This document shows positions 5,676-29,455 of a stretch of 64,000 nt of DNA, piece by piece. The notes beneath the pieces are model-generated. The model searched no databases and was not told where the DNA came from. It saw only the letters and a program-made list of their open reading frames with translations. Position numbers and translations under genes: made by a program. Numbering within the stretch: position 1 is the first letter of the stretch; the number at the start of each line of letters is the position of its first letter. Source of the DNA: an uncultured Desulfospira sp. (GTDB lineage: Bacteria > Desulfobacterota > Desulfobacteria > Desulfobacterales > Desulfobacteraceae); assembly GCA_963663165.1 (NCBI GenBank), contig OY760175.1:2880001-2944000 (forward strand), given 5' to 3'.

Positions 5676-8370
5676 TGTTCATCGTCCCGTCCGGGGCCGC
5701 CGCCCCCACGCCTGTCCGGCCTGCAGCGCTTTGGCCCTGGGCCTGTATGGCCGGTCCCGCCTGACCCTTGAGCTGTTTTTCGGTCTCAATGCGGCTCAAA
5801 TAATGCTGGGTGATACTGTCGGCCAGGTCCTGGAGCCCTTTGTTGAGCCTTTCCAGAAAGGCCTCTAAGTTGGGCAGCACCTGTTTTTCCCCCAGGATCA
5901 TCAGTTCCCTTGTATCGGCCAGGCGCATCCGGGTGGTCAGGTCCAGAACGATCTTCTCCTCCTTTGTCCTGAAGGGGCGGGGTTCGGGCCGGGGAAGGGT
6001 TTCCATATGGGAATGAAGTGCCGCCAGCTGGAATCCCACAGACCGGGGATTGATTTCGTCCAGTAGCAGCAGGTCCACCAGGGGCTCAAGGTGAAGGGTG
6101 GTCCGGTACCTTGTATGATAGGTAATCCGGGAGTCGGCCACCTCCAGCACCGCCTCAAGGTCATGGGAGTCCGGTACCGTACGCTGCCGGATCAGGCTGG
6201 AGAGCACAACGGTCATGTGAAGTGCCCGTTCAATGCGCCGGCCCATGTCCATGAAGCGCCATCCCATCCCCCGGGTCATGCTCTCCAGGGCAAGGCCGGC
6301 AAAGGCGGACATATTCAGGATAATATTATTGAGCATCTCCAGGATTTCAGGGGTCTGGTTGTCCGGATTGATCTGGACCAGTCCTTTTTCAATGCGGCCA
6401 AGGATCTGCCAGGAATCGTCCGACAGCCTGTCCCTGACCCGGTCCGCCACCTGGAGGGCGCTGTTCAGGCAGTTTAAAATACTTCGTTGCACCTGGACCC
6501 CGTAAATGGACCGGTATAACTCCTCTTCAATGGCCCTGACGGAAAACTGGGTATCGGACTCCACCAGGTCGGCAGACACAATCTCAAGATTGGCCATGGT
6601 CCTCAGGAAAAAAGGCATTTCAGGGGCCTTGTCCAGCTGGATTTCGCTGTTCACCCGCATCAGCACACTCCGGATGACCCTGAGCATGCCTTCGGTGCGC
6701 TCCATATACCGTCCGAGCCAGAGCATATTGTCAGCCACCCGGCTGGGCAAGTCGCTGCCCCTGTGGATTTCATAGGGGGTGGTAAACCGGTGGAGCATGC
6801 TTTTGAATTCAGCCGGCCGTTCAGACAGGCACCAGGTATCTTTGGCACCCTGGCCCATCCCCCGTGATCCGGACATCAAAAGGGTTTCAGGATCATCGGA
6901 CACCCGTGTCAGCCCGCCGGGCATGACCGCGTTCTCCACCTGGTCAGCCGCATGGACCACCGGGGCACCGGAATTCTCCGTGATGGCTGTGGAAAACATC
7001 CGGACAGCCGTGTACCGGTTTTTCACGGTCTGCTCAGACCAGACCGGCACCGTAGAGGGGGTAACCCCATACCGGCCGGCCCAGGTGTAAGGGGCCTGTT
7101 TGACAGCGGCCAGCAGTTCAAGTTTTTCAGGGGCCGTCATCTCCTTGGTATGCACGGCACTGGTATGGGCCGGACCGAATGCGCTGAAAAGGGTCATGTC
7201 CCGGGTATTGTTTTTGATCTCATCTTCCACCCGGGCCAGGGTATCCGGACTGCCGAGCCAGAAGCTTTCCGTATTGTCAAGGATCAGGGGCTCTCCCAGA
7301 AGGGTTTGGCACAGCTGGGGCAGCAGGGCAAAGATCCCCGGTGATTCCAGGATACCCGATCCTAACGCATTGCTCACGGCCACGTTTCCCGCCCTTACGG
7401 CCTGGACCAGACCGGGAATGCCGGGAAAATCCAGGGAACCGCCCAGCATGGGGTCGCACCAGCTGTCCGGAATCTGGCGGACGATCACGTCCACCCGCTG
7501 AAGTCCGCCCAGGGTTTTAAGGAAAACCCAATCCCCCCGGGTGGTCAGGTCATTGGCCTCCACCAGGATAATCCCCAGATACCTTGCCAGGAACACCTGC
7601 TCAAAATAGTGGGGAGAGGCCGGCCCCTGGGACAGCATCACAATGCTGGGCTCCTGCTGTTTCTGACCGGATATCTCCATCAAAGACAGGGTCAGATATT
7701 TGAAATACGGGGCCAGGCGCTGGACCTTTCCCCATTGAAACATCCGGGGCAGAATCCGGGTTAAGATGATCCGGTTTTCAAGGGCATACCCCATACCGGC
7801 AGGCATCTGGGTCCCATGGGCCGCCACCTGCCACCGGCCGTCGGGCAGGCGAACCAGGTCTGAAGAAAAAAGGTGGTGGTCCGGAACCGTCCTGCAGGGA
7901 TCAAACCGGCACTGGCGCAGGAACCCGGGGTTGCCGAAAACCAGTTCTGCCGGAATCGCCTTGTTTTTGATCAGGTCCTGGGCACCGTAGATATCTTTGA
8001 AAATCAGCGACAGCAGCTTCGTCCGCTGCTGGATGCCCTGTTCAAGGATTTGCCAGGTACGGCTTGAAATGGGCAAGGGGATGGGATCCAGGGCCCAGGG
8101 CCGTTCCGTTGCCGCTTCCAGGTTGAAGATGTTGTAGGCGGTCCCGTGTTCATGGATCATCTGCCGGGCTTTCTCCCACCGGGAGGAGAGCTCCCGGGTC
8201 CCCAGGCTGTTCAGGTAACCGGTGAGCCGTTCCCAGTGGGGCGGCATGGCGCCGCTGCCCAGGTTTATGGCCGTACTCTGGTTTAACACATCACGGGTAA
8301 AAACCGGGGAAGTCTGAAGTTCCCCGGCCAGTCCCTGATTATCCCCGGGGGGGTCGCTGGGCCGGATCAT
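5665..8370 (-). CDS. Circularly permuted type 2 ATP-grasp fused to alpha-E domain
   Basis: GMGYALENR, NALGSG, MPGGLTRV, GAKDTW, then LPSRVADNMLWLGRYMERTE and MGRRIER alpha-E repeats. Confidence 0.9.
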   Translation of the reverse strand: MIRPSDPPGDNQGLAGELQTSPVFTRDVLNQSTAINLGSGAMPPHWERLTGYLNSLGTRELSSRWEKARQMIHEHGTAYNIFNLEAATERPWALDPIPLPISSRTWQILEQGIQQRTKLLSLIFKDIYGAQDLIKNKAIPAELVFGNPGFLRQCRFDPCRTVPDHHLFSSDLVRLPDGRWQVAAHGTQMPAGMGYALENRIILTRILPRMFQWGKVQRLAPYFKYLTLSLMEISGQKQQEPSIVMLSQGPASPHYFEQVFLARYLGIILVEANDLTTRGDWVFLKTLGGLQRVDVIVRQIPDSWCDPMLGGSLDFPGIPGLVQAVRAGNVAVSNALGSGILESPGIFALLPQLCQTLLGEPLILDNTESFWLGSPDTLARVEDEIKNNTRDMTLFSAFGPAHTSAVHTKEMTAPEKLELLAAVKQAPYTWAGRYGVTPSTVPVWSEQTVKNRYTAVRMFSTAITENSGAPVVHAADQVENAVMPGGLTRVSDDPETLLMSGSRGMGQGAKDTWCLSERPAEFKSMLHRFTTPYEIHRGSDLPSRVADNMLWLGRYMERTEGMLRVIRSVLMRVNSEIQLDKAPEMPFFLRTMANLEIVSADLVESDTQFSVRAIEEELYRSIYGVQVQRSILNCLNSALQVADRVRDRLSDDSWQILGRIEKGLVQINPDNQTPEILEMLNNIILNMSAFAGLALESMTRGMGWRFMDMGRRIERALHMTVVLSSLIRQRTVPDSHDLEAVLEVADSRITYHTRYRTTLHLEPLVDLLLLDEINPRSVGFQLAALHSHMETLPRPEPRPFRTKEEKIVLDLTTRMRLADTRELMILGEKQVLPNLEAFLERLNKGLQDLADSITQHYLSRIETEKQLKGQAGPAIQAQGQSAAGRTGVGAAAPDGTMNSEI

Positions 8371-8617
8371 TCAATTGCCCTGAATTTTATGGTTGTCAAC
8401 ACGATGGGGAAATCTTTCTACCTCTTGGAATGGCGTCTAAACTGTATTGCAGGCCGATCCTTTATCCGCCATTCAGGAGACCCGCCGTTATTTTCTTTTA
8501 TACCCTTGAAAAAACCGGTCATCAGCACCGTTTTTTTAAGGCTTTTCACTATAATGGATTCCCTTGAAAGGCGCAAGATCAAAAGGATGGCTCCAGGGCA
8601 ACAGCTTTTTGATCCGG

Positions 8618-8645
8618 CATGACATTTGAATCATGACATTTGAAT
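8618..8645. repeat. Perfect tandem duplication of CATGACATTTGAAT
   Basis: Two adjacent identical 14-mers. Confidence 0.8.
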
Positions 8646-9013
8646 ATTGTTCGTAAATTTTATAAACCAATGAATAAAACTTAATCTTGCCGGGAAAGAT
8701 TTAGCCCAATATATTGTGATTTCAAAATCCCGGTTTCAAACGACAGATTATAAGTGTCGCTCATCTCCCAAATCAAAAACCATGAAAAAAAGTAACATAG
8801 GGGTGTTGAATATTAATAATAGTCCGGGGCTTTAAACCCATTATTTGAGGGATTTCGGTTTTGCCATAGTCTGCAGTTTGCAATCTGAGCTGAGTCCCTC
8901 ACAATGCTTCAGTTATTGAGTGCTGCTTTCAGATTGGACTGGGCGAGCTTAAATAACAAAAATGCTCGCTTTTTGGGCGGTTCAAACAGAGGCTGGAGAA
9001 TAACATATTCAAT

Positions 9014-9966
9014 TTATTTTTTAGACTTGGGCCGCACCACAAGATGTTGAGATAAATTTAAAATCGATTTGAGCTTTTCAGTCGCAGCTATTCGCTTTTT
9101 GGGTTCCATCCTTGATATATTTTTTATCTTCCACTTTATCGCCGGCAGGTTTTCAAGACCTGAAATTGAAAGCAAGCTGAAATCAGGAATTCCCATTTTA
9201 ACAGACAATAGAAATTCCCGCTCATTTCTTGAAAGTTTGGATAATATTTGAGATGGTAACCCGTTACGTATTTTTTAAGTTCTTCATAACTAACATTTAT
9301 TGAAGACATACCTTTGAATTCAGATTCATATGCCTGTCTGAAATTTTGAAAATTTGGCGAAAGCAACTCAGACATGGGGCGATTATGACTTGCAAGGTAT
9401 ACAACAAACGCTTGACTGATTTCTGGATTTAGACCTTTTGTCTCAGAAAGGAGCTTAATATCAAACAAATCCCGTGGATGCTGACGATCCAAAGCCGCAC
9501 ATATCTTCCCGCCATATAGATCCGCTAAAGAAAGTACCGGGATCTCCATTTTCATTTTAAAAATATCAACGGCATTTTTACATACCGGTTTTAAAATCGG
9601 AGGATAACAACTTCCCCGGAATATCAAATTCGGCTCTATTTTAACCATACTGCTTCGGCTTCTAATGATCAGCTTGTATGTATAGTCCGTGCCTTTTATC
9701 TTTAATTCTTGGATCTGACAGTGCGGAACCAACCGGCTAACCTTATCTGAGATCCTGAATAGTGACTTTCCAATATCCTTTAAAGTTTCATCCCGTGGTT
9801 TAATTGGAAGAAAGGTTAAATCAATATCAACCGATACCCGTGGCATATTCAAATAAAAAAAATTCAAAGCTGTCCCGCCTTTTAAAGCAAAATCTTTTTC
9901 CTGCCCAACAATTGGAAGGACGGACAGCATCCATTTGGCCTGATCAAAATATTTATTCATTTTCAT
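9014..9966 (-). pseudogene. Type IV TA toxin AbiEii/AbiGii nucleotidyltransferase, frameshifted near the C-terminus
   Basis: FALKGGTALN, RVSVDIDL, GGKICAALDRQHPRDLFD; conserved-looking tail FLLSVKMGIPDF...LPAIKWKIKNI lies in another frame (ORF 9014-9208) after the T6 run at 9271-9276. Confidence 0.8.
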
Positions 9967-10757
9967 GGGATATCCGCCAAGTTGATTCCCGCGATCTCAT
10001 TGGGGACCGTTATTTGATATTTTTTATTTAAAATTCCATTAATCGCAACACGGCGCTTGCCTTTCCCCAGGTCAATCTTATTTATCTTCAATTTCTTGAA
10101 CCAGGGCATGTCATATGTGTCCGCAAAATAAAGAAATAATCGTTTTGCTTTAATAGAACTGCAAAATTCAAGGAGGGCTTGCACCACGTCATATCGTAGG
10201 GATAGAAGGCTCTCCATAAAATGCCCCGCCTCTTCAAACGAATGATAATTTGGAACCAGGCTGCACAGTTCCAGCATGGCCCGCTCGGGAGCAGACCCTC
10301 TTATTTCAAAACTGCCTGTATCAAAATGCATTAATCCAAAATCTGGTTGCGATGGGAAAATATTTAATCTTTTAAAACACAGCTCATCCTTCCATGGGTG
10401 TTTCATAAACCAGGCCGGCAATTGGATCTTTTTTGATGCAAAAAGATATACTTTTGCTGTTTGCCCCAATTGGAGATTATGTCCGAATCCAGATAATTCC
10501 AAAGCGGTTTTCCCGCCGGCATGCACACAAAGATTTAGTTGGCTCTGAACCGCATGCAATCCCCCGCGCCAGTCAACAGAATCCCCATATTGTATATAGG
10601 CGCCACTTCCTATTTTAGTTACCCAGGGCGCTTTCTGGTAATAATCTATCAGCTGCTGATATCCACCATAATCGCGAAACCATGCCAATGTCCCCACAGT
10701 TCCTTTGGGCCAGTTTCGTAGGATTCGGTTTAATATATTTCTATTTTCACCAGGCAT
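9963..10757 (-). CDS. Type IV TA antitoxin AbiEi
   Basis: HAGGKTALELSG, SAPERAMLE, CSSIKAKRLFLYFA, IDLGKGKR; 4-bp overlap with toxin gene. Confidence 0.88.
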   Translation of the reverse strand: MPGENRNILNRILRNWPKGTVGTLAWFRDYGGYQQLIDYYQKAPWVTKIGSGAYIQYGDSVDWRGGLHAVQSQLNLCVHAGGKTALELSGFGHNLQLGQTAKVYLFASKKIQLPAWFMKHPWKDELCFKRLNIFPSQPDFGLMHFDTGSFEIRGSAPERAMLELCSLVPNYHSFEEAGHFMESLLSLRYDVVQALLEFCSSIKAKRLFLYFADTYDMPWFKKLKINKIDLGKGKRRVAINGILNKKYQITVPNEIAGINLADIP

Positions 10758-11172
10758 TTTTGTGATTATAAAACAATATCAAACCAAATTCAAGCGGGCA
10801 GTTTAATATTATTTTGATTTAACAAGTTATATTTGTGATTTGTTATCCAATTTATCGGCTATAAATATGAAATTAACGAAACCGATATCAATTTCCGCAT
10901 ATAGGACCACCCCAATATATTGTGGTCGATAAATGACATTAAAGAACTCGCTACATAATGGTATAATTGGACTCTTTTCAAGAAATTATCCGGCCACCAC
11001 ATATTGTGCCCGCCTTGAAACGCTGGAAATAAATTTTATCGAAGATTAACATATTTCTCAGCCCATGAATTTAGATATGAAAATTGGTTCTCAATTGGGT
11101 CTATTTGGTTTAAACTTCCCAATTGGTATGAGTTGTTCGCCCACACCGCCTTTCCAAAAGGAGATTGACTCA

Positions 11173-12342
11173 GTGATCAAAAAAATTGTGGTGCTGATTT
11201 TGCTGCTGTGCGCAGGCGTTATCATATGGAAATGGGCACCGTCATTTTCGCAAAAATTATCTTCCGGCCCTTCCGGAACATCTTCCTCGCCGGTTGCCGT
11301 GGAAGCGGAAAAGGTCCGGACCGGCCCCATTGCCTTAAAACGGGTCTTCAGCGGGGAACTGGAAGCCAACGAAAAATTTGTGGTGGCCCCCAAGGTCAGC
11401 GGCCGGGTGGAGTTTCTGGCCGTGGACATCGGGGACAAGATCCGGCAGGGGCATCTGGTGGCCCGCCTGGATCATGAGGAATTCACCCTTGCCGTCACCC
11501 AGGCCCAGGCCGACCTTGCCGTGGCCCGGGCCGATGAAGCCCGGGCCCAAAGCAGTCTGGAGATTGCCGGCCGGGACATGAAGCGCATCGAAACCTTAAA
11601 AATAAGGGAGGTCTCTTCGGAAGCCCAGCTGGATGAGGCAAGGTCCAGGCAGATGGTGGCCAAAGCCGGGCTGGAAATTGCCAGGGCCAATGTGACCCGG
11701 GCCAGCGCGGCCCTGGAAACGGCCCGGGTCCGGCTGGGGTACACCGAGGTTAAGGCTGACTGGAGCGGAACCGATGATGCCCGGGTGGTGGCCCGGACTT
11801 TCGTGGCCCAGGGAGACATGGTTTCGGCCAACTCCCCCATGGTTTCGGTGGTGGATTTAGATCCCATTATCGGGGTGATCTGGGTGACGGAAAAAGATTA
11901 CGGCCGGCTTGAAACCGGCCTTCAGGCCGAACTGACCACAGACGCTTTTCCCGGCCGGATTTTTTGGGGCAAAGTGGCCAGAATTGCGCCGGTCTTCCGG
12001 GAGGACACCCGCCAGGCCCGGGTGGAGCTGACCGTGGACAACGGCGGCCATGACCTGAAACCGGGCATGTTCATCCGGGCCGGCCTGGTTCTGGATGAGG
12101 TGCCCGACGCCGTGATTGTGCCCGAAAGCGCCCTGACCCGGCGGGACGGCGAAACCGGGGTCTTTCTCATTGAAGAAAAGGATGCTGCCGTGGTGTGGCA
12201 GCCGGTCACCCCGGGCATCCGGGACGGGGACCAGGTTCAGGTGTCCGGAATTTCATCCGGCGGCCGGGTGGTCACCCTGGGCCAGCAGATGCTGGACAAC
12301 GGGTCTAACATTGTGGTCCCTGGAAAGGACCAGCCCCAATGA
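11173..12342 (+). CDS. RND efflux periplasmic adaptor (MFP)
   Basis: N-terminal TM, VAPKVSGRV lipoyl-like motif, coiled coil, LKPGMF; GTG start after AAGGAG. Confidence 0.9.
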   Translation: MIKKIVVLILLLCAGVIIWKWAPSFSQKLSSGPSGTSSSPVAVEAEKVRTGPIALKRVFSGELEANEKFVVAPKVSGRVEFLAVDIGDKIRQGHLVARLDHEEFTLAVTQAQADLAVARADEARAQSSLEIAGRDMKRIETLKIREVSSEAQLDEARSRQMVAKAGLEIARANVTRASAALETARVRLGYTEVKADWSGTDDARVVARTFVAQGDMVSANSPMVSVVDLDPIIGVIWVTEKDYGRLETGLQAELTTDAFPGRIFWGKVARIAPVFREDTRQARVELTVDNGGHDLKPGMFIRAGLVLDEVPDAVIVPESALTRRDGETGVFLIEEKDAAVVWQPVTPGIRDGDQVQVSGISSGGRVVTLGQQMLDNGSNIVVPGKDQPQ

Positions 12343-23017: not shown

Positions 23018-23122
23018 AGCTGTTAGCTGTTAGCCTTTAGCTGTTAGCTGTTAGCTGTTAGCTGTTAGCCTTTAGCTGTTAGCAGGCGTACCAAAAGCTA
23101 ATGGCTAACTGCTAATGGCTAA
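23018..23122. repeat. Heptamer tandem repeat (GCTGTTA)n followed by an inverted arm (GCTAATG/GCTAACT)
   Basis: About nine TTAGCTG/TTAGCCT units, then about four complementary units. Confidence 0.85.
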
Positions 23123-24689: not shown

Positions 24690-24951
24690 GATAAAATTTG
24701 TTTTTACCTTACACCATGGCTTATAAAAACATCTGGAATAACAATAAGTTAGATATATATGGGCCAGCAGGGTGCCGGAATCACACCACCCCGGAATAAA
24801 TCACAGTTTTGTTGATTCACGTTAAAAATGGAACTAAAACGTAATTATTTTTTCCGGAAGCAGGATCTATACATAAAACACCACAGCAGCTACAGTGCCG
24901 CAAGCACAGGGTGGGTTTCTTTGAATTCATGATAATAATGTATATTGTTGA

Positions 24952-25031
24952 GACTTGGGATATGGGATATGGGACTTGGGGAGGCCGTGGATGCCGCAAT
25001 CCCCAGGTCCCATATCCCAAGTCCCAAGTCC
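24952..25031. repeat. Heptamer-based hairpin (TGGGATA/TGGGACT)n ... (GTCCCAA/ATCCCAA)n
   Basis: Four heptamers, ~17-nt loop, four complementary heptamers. Confidence 0.8.
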
Positions 25032-25226
25032 AATTTTTTGGAGTTATGTTGCGAGCGGTCCTGAAGCCTTGATTGACGGTGGTTTGGGCGCCGTAATGCC
25101 GTAAGTCAAAATCGTTCAAATAAACAGTGGGTTATCAAGGGTATGACAAATTTGCAACAAATCACTAAACATAATAAACAGCTACAGTTTGCCCTGAGGA
25201 GTGCTGGTGATGAAGTCTGTAAGGAT

Positions 25227-26246
25227 CTATAGACTATCCAGCCACTCAAGAACGTTTTGCTTGTTTTCCCACTGGATCAACTCCTCAATCTTCGGATCAG
25301 ATTTCAGGTGCTGTTTGGTGAACTGGATGAAGTTCTCTTGTAAATGTCGCTTCTGGCCTAGATCAAGCTTTAAGTAAACCATTGTGGATTTGACATTAGA
25401 ATGCCCCAAGCGATTCTTAATTTCAGATAAAGGCCGATCCTCTGAGAGCATTCGAACGGCACACGAATGACGGAAGCTATGGACGGGGTGCATGGTCGCT
25501 GTCCGCTTTGCCGGTAAAGCCTGTTCAAGGTAGTTTTTACAGATCCGGTTGATACCGTGGCGGGTCAAGCTTGTTCCTCTTTGGTTGATGAACAGCCTTT
25601 TTTTAAACGGATGGATTGGCGTATTGCGATGTTCTTCAATATACTGATGCATAAGCTCTACTGTTTTCCCAAGCAACTGAACTTGTCGATATCGGTTACC
25701 CTTCCCAAGAATCGCCAGAGTTTGATTTTCATAATCAAAATAATCCATCTCAAGGGTAGCGATTTCCGTTGCCCTGGCACCGGTATCATATAATAGATAC
25801 AGAAGGGTATAATCTCGGAACCCGTCCTTTCTTTTAAGTTGGACCGCATTAAGGATTTGATTGATCTCCTGGGGATACAAAAATCCGATCAACTTGTGTT
25901 GGCTTCGTTTCCGGGGAATATCAAGGATCGCATTGGTCAGTTTTTGTTGCTCGGGATAAATAAAACGGATCATTTTGGCAAAAGACTTTAAAACGGCCAG
26001 GCGCTGGTTCCGGGTTTTAGCCGTGTTGGACCGTTTGGATTCAAGCTCATTGAGAAACTGCAAAATTAATTCTACCGTGATATGTTCCAGATTGAGCGAA
26101 CTGACCTTTACGCTGTGGTACTCGGCAGCAAACGGTAAAAAAAAGCGCATGGTATCCCGGTAACTTTTGATCGTATTGGGGCGGCACCCTTTGACATAAG
26201 GCAGGTATTGGTCAAAAAATTGAACAACGCAACGGGTCAGGTTCAT
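25227..26246 (-). CDS. Tyrosine recombinase, RitC-like
   Basis: PNTIKSYRDT, TRNQRLA, YDTGARATE, GKGNR, HSFRH, LGHSNVKSTMVY. Confidence 0.92.
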   Translation of the reverse strand: MNLTRCVVQFFDQYLPYVKGCRPNTIKSYRDTMRFFLPFAAEYHSVKVSSLNLEHITVELILQFLNELESKRSNTAKTRNQRLAVLKSFAKMIRFIYPEQQKLTNAILDIPRKRSQHKLIGFLYPQEINQILNAVQLKRKDGFRDYTLLYLLYDTGARATEIATLEMDYFDYENQTLAILGKGNRYRQVQLLGKTVELMHQYIEEHRNTPIHPFKKRLFINQRGTSLTRHGINRICKNYLEQALPAKRTATMHPVHSFRHSCAVRMLSEDRPLSEIKNRLGHSNVKSTMVYLKLDLGQKRHLQENFIQFTKQHLKSDPKIEELIQWENKQNVLEWLDSL

Positions 26247-27217
26247 GATTCATCCCTTCTGCCGGTGGTAAATTTGAACAGGCTGTCGCGGCTTTCAGCA
26301 TCAACTGCTTTCAAATATTCCATGGTGTATTTATACTCAACATGACCCATATAGCCGGCAAGCACCGGCAGCACATTCCGGGGTGATTGTTTCCGGGCAA
26401 TGGCTGCCTTCAAGGTGTTAATGGCAAAAGAGTGCCGTAAACAGTGCGGAGTGGGCTTCCCAAAGGTCGTGTCGCCGATAATTTTCCTTGGGCGGCGGAT
26501 CCCGATTTGACGCACAGCATCGTGAAAAACAGAGCGAATACGGTTATCGTTCAAGCCGTTTTCCCCTATCCCCATGAACAGGTAGGGATTCATATCGTTT
26601 TCAATTAAAGCGGCCCTGGTTAAAAGATAGTTGTCAATCTGCATGGCAGTTGATTTTGGAATAGGGATAAGACGGTCCTTTTTGAACTTGGTTTTCTCTA
26701 TGTAAATCGTCTTTTCATCCGGCCGGTAATTTTTCAATCTCAGGCGCAAGGGTTCATTCATCCTCAGCCCACAGCGGGCAAGCAGAAGGATCACCAGATA
26801 TTCACTGTAATCTTTAAGGAACCGCATAGGGGTTTGCCGGATCCGTCCGCATACCACCCCCAGTAACATTTCTACCTGCTCCGGTGAGAATATAAAGGGG
26901 ATGAAGGTGCGTCGGGCCGGAGCGGTCACATCTTTCAAAGGGTTATCAAGATTTATCCGCTGCCGTTTCAGATAATCAAAAAAGCCTCGAACTACATTTA
27001 GAATGCTGGCTACGCCGGAGGGCTCAAGGCCAATCTCATTTTTAAAGGTGATATAAAAATGGGGCATCCAAATGTCTGAGAGATCCGGCTGCCTCATTAA
27101 AAAATCGTCAAAGGTAAGCAAGGCCCACCGGAGCATATGGCAACTGTATCCCAGTCCTTGCCGGTAAACAATAAAGTTTTCCATCTCTGTGGCCAAAAAG
27201 CTTTTAAACGGTTTCAT
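26243..27217 (-). CDS. Tyrosine recombinase, RitB-like
   Basis: PFIFSPEQV, CGLRMNE, TKFKKDRLIP, HCLRHSFA, LPVLAGYMGH...TMEY. Confidence 0.92.
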   Translation of the reverse strand: MKPFKSFLATEMENFIVYRQGLGYSCHMLRWALLTFDDFLMRQPDLSDIWMPHFYITFKNEIGLEPSGVASILNVVRGFFDYLKRQRINLDNPLKDVTAPARRTFIPFIFSPEQVEMLLGVVCGRIRQTPMRFLKDYSEYLVILLLARCGLRMNEPLRLRLKNYRPDEKTIYIEKTKFKKDRLIPIPKSTAMQIDNYLLTRAALIENDMNPYLFMGIGENGLNDNRIRSVFHDAVRQIGIRRPRKIIGDTTFGKPTPHCLRHSFAINTLKAAIARKQSPRNVLPVLAGYMGHVEYKYTMEYLKAVDAESRDSLFKFTTGRRDES

Positions 27218-28121
27218 CGAACAACACCCGGCGCATCAATTCCTTGTGGATACTTAGATATACTTTTGTGGAATCAATGATGGAATGCCCCATCATTTCT
27301 TTGATTTCAAAAATGCCGGCACCTGCTTCCAGCATGTTTTGTGCAAAGGTGTGGCGCAGCCAATATCCTGTACCGGGAAGACCGGCAGCCCGCAACGCCT
27401 TTGTTAAATCGTGCCTGGTGAGCCAGGCACTTACAGCTCTGTAAGGTGGGCAATGGCTGGTTAAAAAAAGAGAGCGAGACTGACTTTTAGGCCTGCCTCC
27501 AACGATATAAGCGGTGATTGCTTTGATAACTTCATCGGGAATGGGCAATTGAAGGGGCTTTGCATTTTTTGTGTTTTCCAGGTTTAGCAGTCCTTTGGCA
27601 AAACAGATATCGTCCAGAGTAAGGCGGCTGATTTCAATGGGGCGCAATCCAAGATAATAAGCCAGGTGAACCTGTGCATAGACACGAAGCTCTTTGGATG
27701 TTGCACAGGGCAAATGATCAAATAACTGACGGACTTCACCGGGTCTTAAAAATTTAGGAGGCTTGACTTGAGCAAACATTGGCGGACCGGTCACAAGCGG
27801 GGCTAAATTCTGTTGGATCAAATGCCGTTCATTATACAGGTAGTGCAAAAAGCCTCGAAAACAGGAACGGTATACCCCCTGGGTACTCTTTGCATATGGG
27901 GCATTGAACCTTGCCAGAAAATCATCAACATGCCCTATGTTTATATTGACCAGTGAGACTCCCGATGTTTGCAGATAACTGTCAAACGCTTTGATAATTT
28001 TGGTCCTGCAACAGGTTTGAGAAGGAGAGCTTTCCTTGATTTTAAGCATATGGTCCAGATAATCCCGGCGGATCTGATCCAGATCATAACCGGGCGGACT
28101 TTTGGGTGTCTGCTCAACCAT
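27204..28121 (-). CDS. Tyrosine recombinase, RitA-like (short, 305 aa)
   Basis: PPKFL, LGLRPIEI, YWLRHTFA (HxxR His replaced by Tyr), MGHSIIDSTKVY. Confidence 0.88.
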   Translation of the reverse strand: MVEQTPKSPPGYDLDQIRRDYLDHMLKIKESSPSQTCCRTKIIKAFDSYLQTSGVSLVNINIGHVDDFLARFNAPYAKSTQGVYRSCFRGFLHYLYNERHLIQQNLAPLVTGPPMFAQVKPPKFLRPGEVRQLFDHLPCATSKELRVYAQVHLAYYLGLRPIEISRLTLDDICFAKGLLNLENTKNAKPLQLPIPDEVIKAITAYIVGGRPKSQSRSLFLTSHCPPYRAVSAWLTRHDLTKALRAAGLPGTGYWLRHTFAQNMLEAGAGIFEIKEMMGHSIIDSTKVYLSIHKELMRRVLFDETV

Positions 28122-28554
28122 GATCGGCCTCCATAACCAGTTTGCTCAAAATTTTTCCAACTGATTCAGGTTGACGGCTGTTCAGGGAAGATTTTTTTTG
28201 TACAGCAGATTGTATAAGGTTGGCCGGTAAGGAAAGCACCTGGTAAATGGTGCCGTCAAAGGCAATCAGATCATTTTCCATCAATCCATCCCGAGCTTCA
28301 ATGTACTGGTCCAGTTGCATTTTTAGCAGGGTGCATATTTTATCATAACTGTAAAAACTTAATCCGTTGCGGTCACCGGCCAGAACCAGGAAAAAATACA
28401 ATAACAACTCGTCCCGGCTTAATGCTCGCAAAAATCCACCCGTAAGAAACCGATGGGGGATAAAACTAAATCCTCCTTTGATACAACGCACCCTTGAAGG
28501 GTTCAGGATTTCTTTTTTTACCATGCCGCGCCTCCAGTTTTTACGTTTATCCAT
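28114..28554 (-). CDS. Winged helix-turn-helix-like protein of the mobile element
   Basis: GFSFIPHRF...LLLYFFLVLAGDRNGLSFYSYDKICTLL...ARDGLMENDLI pattern; overlaps both neighbours by 8 bp. Confidence 0.7.
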   Translation of the reverse strand: MDKRKNWRRGMVKKEILNPSRVRCIKGGFSFIPHRFLTGGFLRALSRDELLLYFFLVLAGDRNGLSFYSYDKICTLLKMQLDQYIEARDGLMENDLIAFDGTIYQVLSLPANLIQSAVQKKSSLNSRQPESVGKILSKLVMEADHG

Positions 28555-28933
28555 ATCCCCGCCGGGGAAATTGTGTGACGACTTGACCTGAAGAGCCGCA
28601 GAACTGACAATATGGTTTGATTGGAAGGCCCTGAATCTGAAACAAAATCCACAATATTATTGTCCTACACCAAGCAGGCAGCACTGTGGAAGCTGTATCA
28701 TCCATGTTTTTTGTCTCTTGAATTTTTTTTCGATGCCGACGCCGGTTCTCGGCTTCCCGATGCCGTCTTTTCCCCTTCTCGGTCTGGCGGTATCGTCGCT
28801 GTGCTTCTCTTTTGTTTCTGAGGATTCCGGCCTTACGGCAGTCCCTGCAACAATAGGCCTGCCCTCTCCAGCAGAACCTGCAAACAAAAAATACGAAATG
28901 GCACCATCGGCATGTATTTGGAATTAAAAGCAT
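28547..28933 (-). CDS. Cys-rich (putative zinc-binding) basic hypothetical protein
   Basis: CxxC-x6-CxxC-x6-CCxxC, Arg/Lys-rich helix, C-terminal CQFC. Confidence 0.7.
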   Translation of the reverse strand: MLLIPNTCRWCHFVFFVCRFCWRGQAYCCRDCRKAGILRNKREAQRRYRQTEKGKRRHREAENRRRHRKKIQETKNMDDTASTVLPAWCRTIILWILFQIQGLPIKPYCQFCGSSGQVVTQFPRRGYG

Positions 28934-28983
28934 TTTAGATTTTTCCGGTATTGCAGATAACCGGAAAATGATATAGAAATATA

Positions 28984-29060
28984 ACTGTGTGTGTGGGCTT
29001 CTCCGGCTATCGACGGGAGTTCACAATCAAAGCCCGGAGGGGCTACTCCGGGCTTTTTCT
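28984..29060 (+). ncRNA. Candidate small counter-transcribed RNA of the RIT-like element
   Basis: TTGCAG and TGnTATAGA upstream; G-U-rich stem 28992-29025 that pairs well only on the + strand; terminator hairpin with U-tract. Confidence 0.5.
29029..29060 (+). terminator. Intrinsic terminator
   Basis: AAAGCCCGGAG-GGGCTA-CTCCGGGCTTT-TTCT, perfect 11-bp stem. Confidence 0.75.
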
Positions 29061-29455
29061 ATGCATATGATTTGGAATTATACGAATAAAATGAAAGATT
29101 TGAAAAATCTTTTTGAATAAAAATGAATAAAACTCACAACATAATCAAACACGCTACATAATTGGAGAATAACTTTAATTCCCATTTTAGAGGTGTTGAC
29201 ATTTTTTCTAATTAGTTACGAAAAAGGGTCAAATCTACTATTGGCCCTTAGCTGTTTTTTGTGCATTTGTTGGTAAATTTTATATATAAAAAACGGAACC
29301 CGGAAGAAAGGAGACCGGATCGCGCATCCTGAGGGGCTTTGCATTCCGGTCTCCCGTATCCGGTTTCCCGCCTCCTTTTTAATATGAGTTGATCTCACTT
29401 AAAATCCGGTCTATTAAAACAGATGCACGACTTTAACAGCAACTCAAGGAGAACC

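Follow-up and report, generated by a model that had tools for sequence, protein, structure and literature searches.

What purpose is served by a short, repeat-rich leader at the head of a recombinase operon, and which of its strands carries the function, is the question raised by the region described here, part of a window of 64,000 nucleotides (the whole stretch of DNA that was analysed) from an uncultured Desulfospira sp. Our comparison of homologous leaders makes it very probable that an RNA is made from the + strand, and suggests that this cis-antisense RNA of about 73 nt likely represses translation of the first operon gene (ZnF) by way of a fold switch predicted in the mRNA leader. The initial annotation of this DNA had proposed a counter-transcribed RNA of about 75 nt, by analogy with the antisense RNAs of plasmids, and that proposal is well supported comparatively, by conserved promoter bases, covariation and wobble asymmetry. 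The palindrome, the −35-like TTGCAG, the stem and the perfect terminator on which it was built are all found where they had been drawn.

The operon lies on the − strand and consists of five genes, with successive overlaps of 8, 8, 14 and 4 bp. The first (28547..28933) encodes the ZnF protein, which is 128 aa long, Cys-rich and Arg-rich, and its transcript is the predicted target of the RNA. It is followed by a gene for an HTH-like protein of 146 aa (28114..28554), which overlaps its neighbors by 8 bp and has a weak Pfam match to HTH_36 (E 0.007, below the cut-off), and by genes for three tyrosine recombinases of 305 aa (27204..28121), 324 aa (26243..27217) and 339 aa (25227..26246), with Pfam Phage_integrase matches at 1.4e-23, 5.3e-17 and 7.5e-30 (the last with catalytic motifs). 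We call these putative RitA, RitB and RitC, names that reflect gene position only. In an alignment of 31 homologues, eight cysteines of the ZnF protein are invariant, and a predicted model (mean pLDDT 81) contains long Arg-rich helices. With 2669 clusters at E<=0.001 the family is large, and the protein matched no family above the cut-off in Pfam or NCBIfam, nor did its model have a Foldseek match at E<=0.001; a search of viral contigs returned only two matches, both weak and partial. A promoter scan revealed a candidate promoter for the operon mRNA, TTCAAA-N16-TATAAT (29077..29104, − strand), upstream of the whole antisense target; its TATAAT is kept in 10/71 leaders, which form a close clade, and is not recognizable in most others.

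These genes are carried by a mobile element of 4118 bp (25044..29161, to which no strand is assigned) with inverted ends of the form TTATGT(T/A)GCG. The genome holds eight copies with the same ends and 99.5-99.9% identity, and the leader upstream of the ZnF gene is identical in all of them; the stretch 25038-29167 was also recovered as a single 4130-bp unitig from two runs of one sample. As in RIT elements, three adjacent tyrosine recombinases with catalytic motifs are present. Given the gene starts that we called, the overlaps between these three genes amount to 4 bp and 14 bp, versus the 4-8 bp of the RIT definition, and the element measures 4118 bp with short ends (matching at 9 of the first 10 bases and at 13/30 overall) rather than about 3.5 kb with a 28-29-bp inverted repeat. 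Because of the mismatch in size and terminal repeats, we classify the element as RIT-like. A 6-bp core, TTGGAG, stands on the + strand at its left (25038..25043) and right (29162..29167) junctions, and is found on both sides in six of the eight copies. The left core is at the same time the end of a palindromic repeat of 113 bp (24931-25043), which has 37 near-full copies in the genome, and six of the eight copies of the element are inserted exactly at the end of this repeat. In two copies (ZnF starts 6121845 and 5568769 of G000:C1) the left/right cores are TTGAAG/TTGGAG and TTGGAG/CCCTAC; such unequal cores fit better with core exchange by a tyrosine recombinase than with target duplication. 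No joint corresponding to a circular junction of the element was present in the contigs of four runs, contigs being prone to drop rare forms. Another dispersed family of palindromic repeats is represented just to the right of the element (29267-29380), and a 7-bp tandem repeat lies at 23018-23083.

The comparative evidence comes from homologues of the ZnF gene, found with the 31-sequence alignment. We used the best 80 of 229 genome loci and the best 80 of 513 metagenome loci, plus further loci from 201 genomes of the order; since the best-scoring loci were taken, the set leans toward close relatives. Of the 192 loci, 173 matched ZnF close to its start and offered at least 150 nt upstream, and these gave 139 distinct leaders. 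A terminator-like hairpin facing in the antisense direction was found in 134/139, and in 132/139 it lies 106-138 nt upstream of the ZnF start; the same finder reported 4/600 among control genes of this genome. Among the leaders that it missed, L069 and L072 were later matched by the covariance model (74 bits) or share its layout, and L173, L176 and L177 do neither. Clustering at 88% left 73 rows, and removal of two with hairpins out of place (L169 and L182) gave the 71-row alignment A2; a 44-row subset, A3, was aligned on the antisense strand. Both alignments were drawn from leaders chosen for having a terminator, and related sequences in them are not independent. Because a G-U pair on one strand corresponds to A-C on the other, the strand of a structured RNA can be read from its wobbles, and we counted such events on two ZnF trees.

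The predicted RNA (28986..29058, + strand, its 5′ end placed from the promoter) would consist of a short 5′ tail, a stem-loop with a variable loop (stem-loop 1, 28992..29025), a linker and an intrinsic terminator (29029..29058), the last being a perfect 11-bp hairpin with a 6-nt loop and T5. Its putative −35 element, TTGCAG (28951..28956), sits in the loop of the palindrome and retains TTG in 71/71 leaders. The TGnTATAGA that had been noted after it (TGATATAGA, 28969-28977) does not hold up as the −10 element: TATAGA would leave a 15-bp spacer, and T (68/71) and A (58/71) are conserved after a 17-bp spacer, so that the −10 here is TAGAAA (28974..28979); conservation of a final T is poor (24/71). 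A simple promoter/terminator scan listed neither the antisense promoter nor a terminator on the + strand. Stem 1 folds at −15.6 kcal/mol (z −2.4) on the + strand versus −8.0 (z −0.8) on the − strand, and the antisense strand folds better in 68/71 leaders, which bears out the earlier suggestion that the stem is + strand specific. The 73-nt candidate as a whole folds into two hairpins (z −3.9), and 0/200 shuffles fold as well.

The covariation among homologous leaders on which the initial annotation had staked its RNA is present. In A3, 90.8% of cells in the RNA structure are paired, with two-sided changes in 10/20 pairs, and slid registers reach at most 60%; for the terminator the corresponding figures are 98% of cells and 6/11 pairs. 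The T-run is longer on the antisense side of the terminator (5.8 versus 3.2 of 8), and its pair breaks go 13-14 times to antisense-compatible wobbles versus once to mRNA wobbles, in addition to 11 double changes. Lower stem 1 behaves likewise (17-22 antisense-compatible wobbles versus 2 mRNA-compatible). The top three pairs of the stem lean to mRNA wobbles (12-13 versus 5), as if a target hairpin were also kept on the mRNA. The loops of stem-loop 1 are diverse, with 48 distinct forms among 71 leaders. The motif YUNR, to which the available text of one study assigns a U-turn role (PMC4152353), occurs in the RNA loop in 56/71 leaders versus 7/71 for the target loop (raw counts, without correction for base composition), and is lacking from the RNA loop of the present copy. 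A search of Rfam with the window region and 13 homologous loci gave no match at gathering level, only sub-threshold ones. Taken as a whole, the leaders point to a real and conserved antisense RNA family that is apparently undescribed. The earlier statement that no open reading frame fits the unit also stands: distances from start to terminator vary by single bases, so the region is not codon-constrained, and we rejected a coding role for the leader.

The palindrome comprises TTTTCCGGT (28941-28949), a 10-nt spacer and ACCGGAAAA (28960-28968), and on the mRNA strand it would form a hairpin whose 3′ arm is the Shine-Dalgarno (SD) site. We refer to this arm as box 3 (28941..28949, − strand; its SD sequence is GGA in this copy and GGAGG in most homologues, and it lies 10 nt ahead of the ATG) and to the anti-SD arm as box 2 (28960..28968, − strand), which can pair with box 3 (off) or with box 1 (on) and doubles as the spacer of the antisense promoter. 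Boxes 2 and 3 are paired in 86% of cells, above shuffles and slid registers. Outside the SD site, breaks in this pairing go 24-25 times to mRNA wobbles (G-U) versus 3 times to the opposite kind (A-C), and the wobble bias is reversed 100 nt away, which rules out a general strand bias in mutation. The palindrome, described at first as an operator at the head of the operon, is present as such, and the events favor reading it as an mRNA hairpin that hides the SD site more than as a DNA operator. In most homologues (A2 columns 163-200) an ATG stands 1-2 nt past the GGAGG, and a TTG-like codon stands about 10 nt past it, at the aligned start; the true ZnF start in most homologues is likely this weak TTG-like codon.

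Box 1 (28999..29007, − strand), the putative pre-emptor, is an mRNA segment whose sequence complements that of box 2 and which lies within the stretch that the antisense RNA would cover. We propose that in the nascent mRNA box 1 would pair with box 2 before box 3 is made, leaving the SD site open; binding of the antisense RNA to its target would cover box 1, box 2 would then pair with box 3, and the ribosome site would be hidden. On the combined weight of sequence comparison, modeling and analogy, we hold it to be reasonably probable that the leader works as a switch like that of pSK41 RNAI, in which the antisense RNA removes the box 1 pre-emptor and thereby blocks translation of the first operon gene. 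Since each of the five genes overlaps the next, a fall in ZnF expression would presumably extend to the recombinase genes, and given that the RNA would act on every identical copy, repression would be expected to rise with copy number, as the precedents of IS10 and of plasmids suggest.

The layout has the components of such a switch. A promoter and a terminator that face counter to the operon bound a short two-hairpin RNA inside the mRNA leader, and an mRNA-strand hairpin covers the ribosome-binding site; the pre-emptor, which lies within the antisense target and competes for the 5′ arm, is indicated by covariation and folding, with mixed support at equilibrium. Boxes 1 and 2 are paired in 78% of cells, above shuffles and the best slid register (50%), with two-sided changes in 7/10 pairs. 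In 7/7 columns, conservation is higher in box 1 than in the arm opposite it in the RNA stem, and the box 1 A at column 98, though mostly mismatched in that stem, persists in 68/69. When the nascent mRNA is folded up to just before box 3, box 1:box 2 pairing exceeds a probability of 0.5 in 64/71 leaders and is 0.83 here. The SD hairpin becomes more probable when the target region is shuffled, at 0.78 rather than 0.47 (native lower in 39 leaders, higher in 4), and it climbs from 0.42 to 0.76 when the target is barred from pairing, as a mimic of bound RNA. At equilibrium, only 32/71 complete leaders favor the on state when free of the RNA, the SD site opens by more than 0.05 in only 35/71, and the present copy favors the off hairpin (0.60 versus 0.23); as equilibrium folds favor the off state in many leaders, the switch model needs co-transcriptional folding. 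The wobble asymmetry of box 1:box 2 is modest (27-28 versus 16-17 events, with 7 doubles), and the duplex is stronger on the mRNA strand in only 26/71. The model also calls for an mRNA that starts upstream of the antisense target; a promoter-like site in that position is present here and is recognizable in only 10/71 leaders.

One alternative, which we regard as unlikely, is that the RNA is made and acts apart from any switch, the SD hairpin being a constitutive brake and the RNA working through duplex-triggered decay, standby-site block or transcriptional interference. The SD hairpin is indeed dominant without the RNA in 39/71 leaders by equilibrium folding, and in the available account of IS200 the antisense RNA art200 and the mRNA structure act independently (PMC4513863). 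However, the kept complementarity of boxes 1 and 2, the extra conservation of box 1 and the nascent folds would all be left unexplained. It is quite improbable, in our estimation, that the RNA or its mRNA hairpins are chiefly a ligand of the basic ZnF protein, in feedback or antitermination, with antisense pairing secondary. The constant association of RNA and ZnF gene, the Arg-rich helices and the conservation of the terminator stem sequence across unrelated elements would suit a ligand, but the linkage is equally expected of a cis-antisense regulator, 11 independent double changes are tolerated in the terminator stem, and distant Burkholderiaceae homologues of ZnF have a different hairpin. 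That boxes 1 to 3 are CCGGAAG-like half-sites on the DNA, making up an operator through which the ZnF or HTH protein controls both promoters, strikes us as very unlikely. Three related boxes at fixed spacing, two of which (boxes 2 and 3) flank the antisense −35, could be so read; against this, column 162 changes from C to T 12 times and the mirror change, G to A at column 145, never occurs, whereas symmetric half-sites should tolerate both, and the bias toward mRNA wobbles and the identity of box 3 with the SD site point the same way. Some protein binding in addition to the RNA control may occur. An SD-sequestering leader with a cis-antisense RNA is also the layout of type I toxin-antitoxin systems, and could here signify a ZnF toxin whose RNA antitoxin stabilizes the element. 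This is extremely improbable, as a 128-aa Cys-rich basic protein at the head of overlapping transposition genes is no free-standing hydrophobic peptide, and no match to a toxin family was found.

Hardly credible, finally, is a bridge-RNA style of action, in which the RNA would guide the recombinases to their targets. The initial annotation had offered a role as cofactor of the recombinases and suggested asking whether the loop varies with, or matches, the target sites. The loop is identical in eight copies at different sites, and among 30 RIT-like elements, which have 14 different 6-mer cores beside the element end, the core does not track the element's own RNA (mean best match 4.27 versus 4.29 shuffled, p=0.72); we therefore rejected the RNA as a recombinase guide. 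A perfect core match in the element's own RNA does occur in 2/30 elements (L042 and L045) versus 0.27 expected, but elements sharing the same core lack the match, and L042 and L045 are closely related judging from their printed rows, so that the two matches are likely one event. The RNA also follows the ZnF gene across unrelated recombinases, the same family preceding IS21-type and other DDE transposases, and both ZnF and RNA are missing from two other RIT families of this genome. Related RIT-like elements (L005, L008, L042, L052, L018, L039 and others) have different 6-bp cores, and the presence of 14 kinds in 30 related elements implies that target preference diverges quickly. Cores of the type TGCAAG/GGCAAG resemble the −35 loop of the leader.

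To return to the proposed switch, the unit formed by the RNA and the ZnF gene recurs, with the RNA facing in reverse, at the front of three unrelated kinds of element, mostly in sulfate-reducing bacteria. Typed by downstream genes, the 139 leaders comprise 89 RIT-like, 24 IS21-like and 5 DDE/AAA loci and 21 unlabeled ones. The present genome has 11 further ZnF homologues, five in an IS21-like element (gene order ZnF, HTH, ParB-like, IstA, IstB) and six in a DDE/AAA-type element, with family names taken from Pfam hits on relatives in other loci. The DDE/AAA-type element is 4278 bp long (e.g., G000:C1 1874151-1878429), with TG...CA ends, duplications of 5-6 bp and genes for ZnF, a CHC2 zinc finger, a protein of no assigned function, an rve-like protein and an AAA ATPase; its relatives matched no named IS family above the cut-off. 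A covariance model built from ZnF leaders, a check that the initial annotation had called for, found all 19 ZnF leaders of the genome on the antisense strand (E<1e-11) and otherwise only the opposite strand at the same places. It matched 15 of 151 genomes of the order. The strong extra matches that we checked lie before intact or broken ZnF genes or are truncated remnants, and most of the matches at E 1e-5 to 1e-3 that do not lie near a ZnF gene are generic terminators. At L200 (G074:C2:216028-216145) a truncated copy of the two-hairpin RNA, without promoter or ZnF gene, lies near a tRNA-like sequence. The two further RIT families of this genome (four copies each; G000:C1, e.g., 6731796-6736498 and 7842-11918) lack a ZnF homologue and any match to the RNA model, and have other Cys-rich genes upstream; RIT trios in this genome take varied upstream modules.

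A ZnF tree of 68 rows, with many forks unresolved, shows 7 changes of element type (minimum 2), and its well-supported branches force at least 2 changes per element type, which suggests that the cassette has been exchanged between element types. Each of the three RNAs of this genome pairs with its own target at −66 to −82 kcal/mol versus −16 to −39 with the targets of the others, and these computed energies are consistent with separate specificities. One possibility, on which we are somewhat short of evenly divided, is that RNA, leader switch and ZnF form a portable copy-sensing cassette swapped among RIT, IS21-like and the second, DDE/AAA elements. Element-specific loops would then act like plasmid incompatibility groups, which would allow three families (8, 6 and 5 copies) to coexist in one genome, each braking only itself. 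Distant ZnF homologues precede IS21 istA on Burkholderiaceae plasmids, where a different hairpin faces in the antisense direction, and on three such plasmids the covariance model gave no match upstream of distant homologues of ZnF or HTH. On plasmids of Burkholderia thailandensis and Cupriavidus taiwanensis (L231:4790-4845 and L232:4840-4890), unannotated ZnF homologues are accompanied by a long hairpin with a T-rich tail, whose loop contains UUGGCG, the motif named in the title of a paper on the Inc RNA of ColIb-P9. This hairpin may represent a second antisense family.

The comparison defines an RNA family that Rfam does not contain, and a plasmid-type fold switch appears to extend to transposons, likely as a copy brake on the element's first gene. 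The element under this putative control has recently spread to eight copies. How RIT elements are expressed and limited is left open in the available RIT literature, and the leader offers a precise, mutable control site; removal of the predicted brake in a laboratory strain would offer a direct means of increasing RIT activity and studying its mechanism. The same regulatory cassette sits on unrelated recombination chemistries, and the natural RNA-leader pairs that it supplies, dozens in number, may be mutually orthogonal.

With regard to known systems, the element resembles RIT elements in its three overlapping tyrosine recombinase genes and multiple identical copies, and differs from those so far described in its 4.1-kb length, two extra upstream genes, structured leader and short terminal repeats (PMC3414803, PMC5737581, PMC8138268). 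The available text of these papers calls the movement mechanism unresolved and does not describe regulation by RNA, and our literature search, which covered neither subscription papers nor supplements, returned no earlier description of such an RNA in these elements. The phage P22 sar RNA (Rfam RF00262) gave a weak shape match (28993-29060, + strand, 23.3 bits, E 0.32), and membership in that family was rejected on the gathering score of 43 and its absence from the 13 homologous loci. IS10 RNA-OUT and IS200 art200 provide precedents, in that each controls transposition genes as a cis-antisense RNA and acts in trans on every copy, and IS200 also has an SD-sequestering hairpin; as described in the part of the source available, both RNAs extend over the initiation region itself and obstruct ribosomes directly, the IS200 RNA and hairpin being independent (PMC4513863). 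In contrast, the present RNA, which is shared by three element classes, would start about 50 nt upstream of the start codon and target an accessory ZnF gene.

The closest likeness is to plasmid leaders. The RNAI of pSK41, a counter-transcribed RNA of about 83 nt directed at a plasmid replication initiator of staphylococci, is described in the accessible account as having a similar size, two stem-loops, a short spacer and a 5′ tail; as we propose here, its binding site lies upstream of the initiation region, and pairing there triggers a hairpin that masks the ribosome site (PMC5703833). No Rfam match or sequence relationship to it was found, and membership among plasmid copy-control RNAs was rejected on the ground that the target operon belongs to chromosomal multicopy elements and carries genes for ZnF, HTH-like and recombinase or transposase proteins rather than for a replication initiator. 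In pT181 RNAI and the repABC antisense RNA too, an upstream sequence prevents a downstream hairpin when the RNA is absent, according to the available text (PMC5703833, PMC3155836); there the induced hairpin terminates transcription, whereas here it would cover the SD site, and no U-run follows box 2:box 3 in this copy. Unlike pSK41 RNAI, which serves a replication initiator, the present RNA heads transposition operons and its own promoter overlaps the SD hairpin. The logic of the fold switch is already known from plasmids, and its predicted use in transposons is an extension of it.
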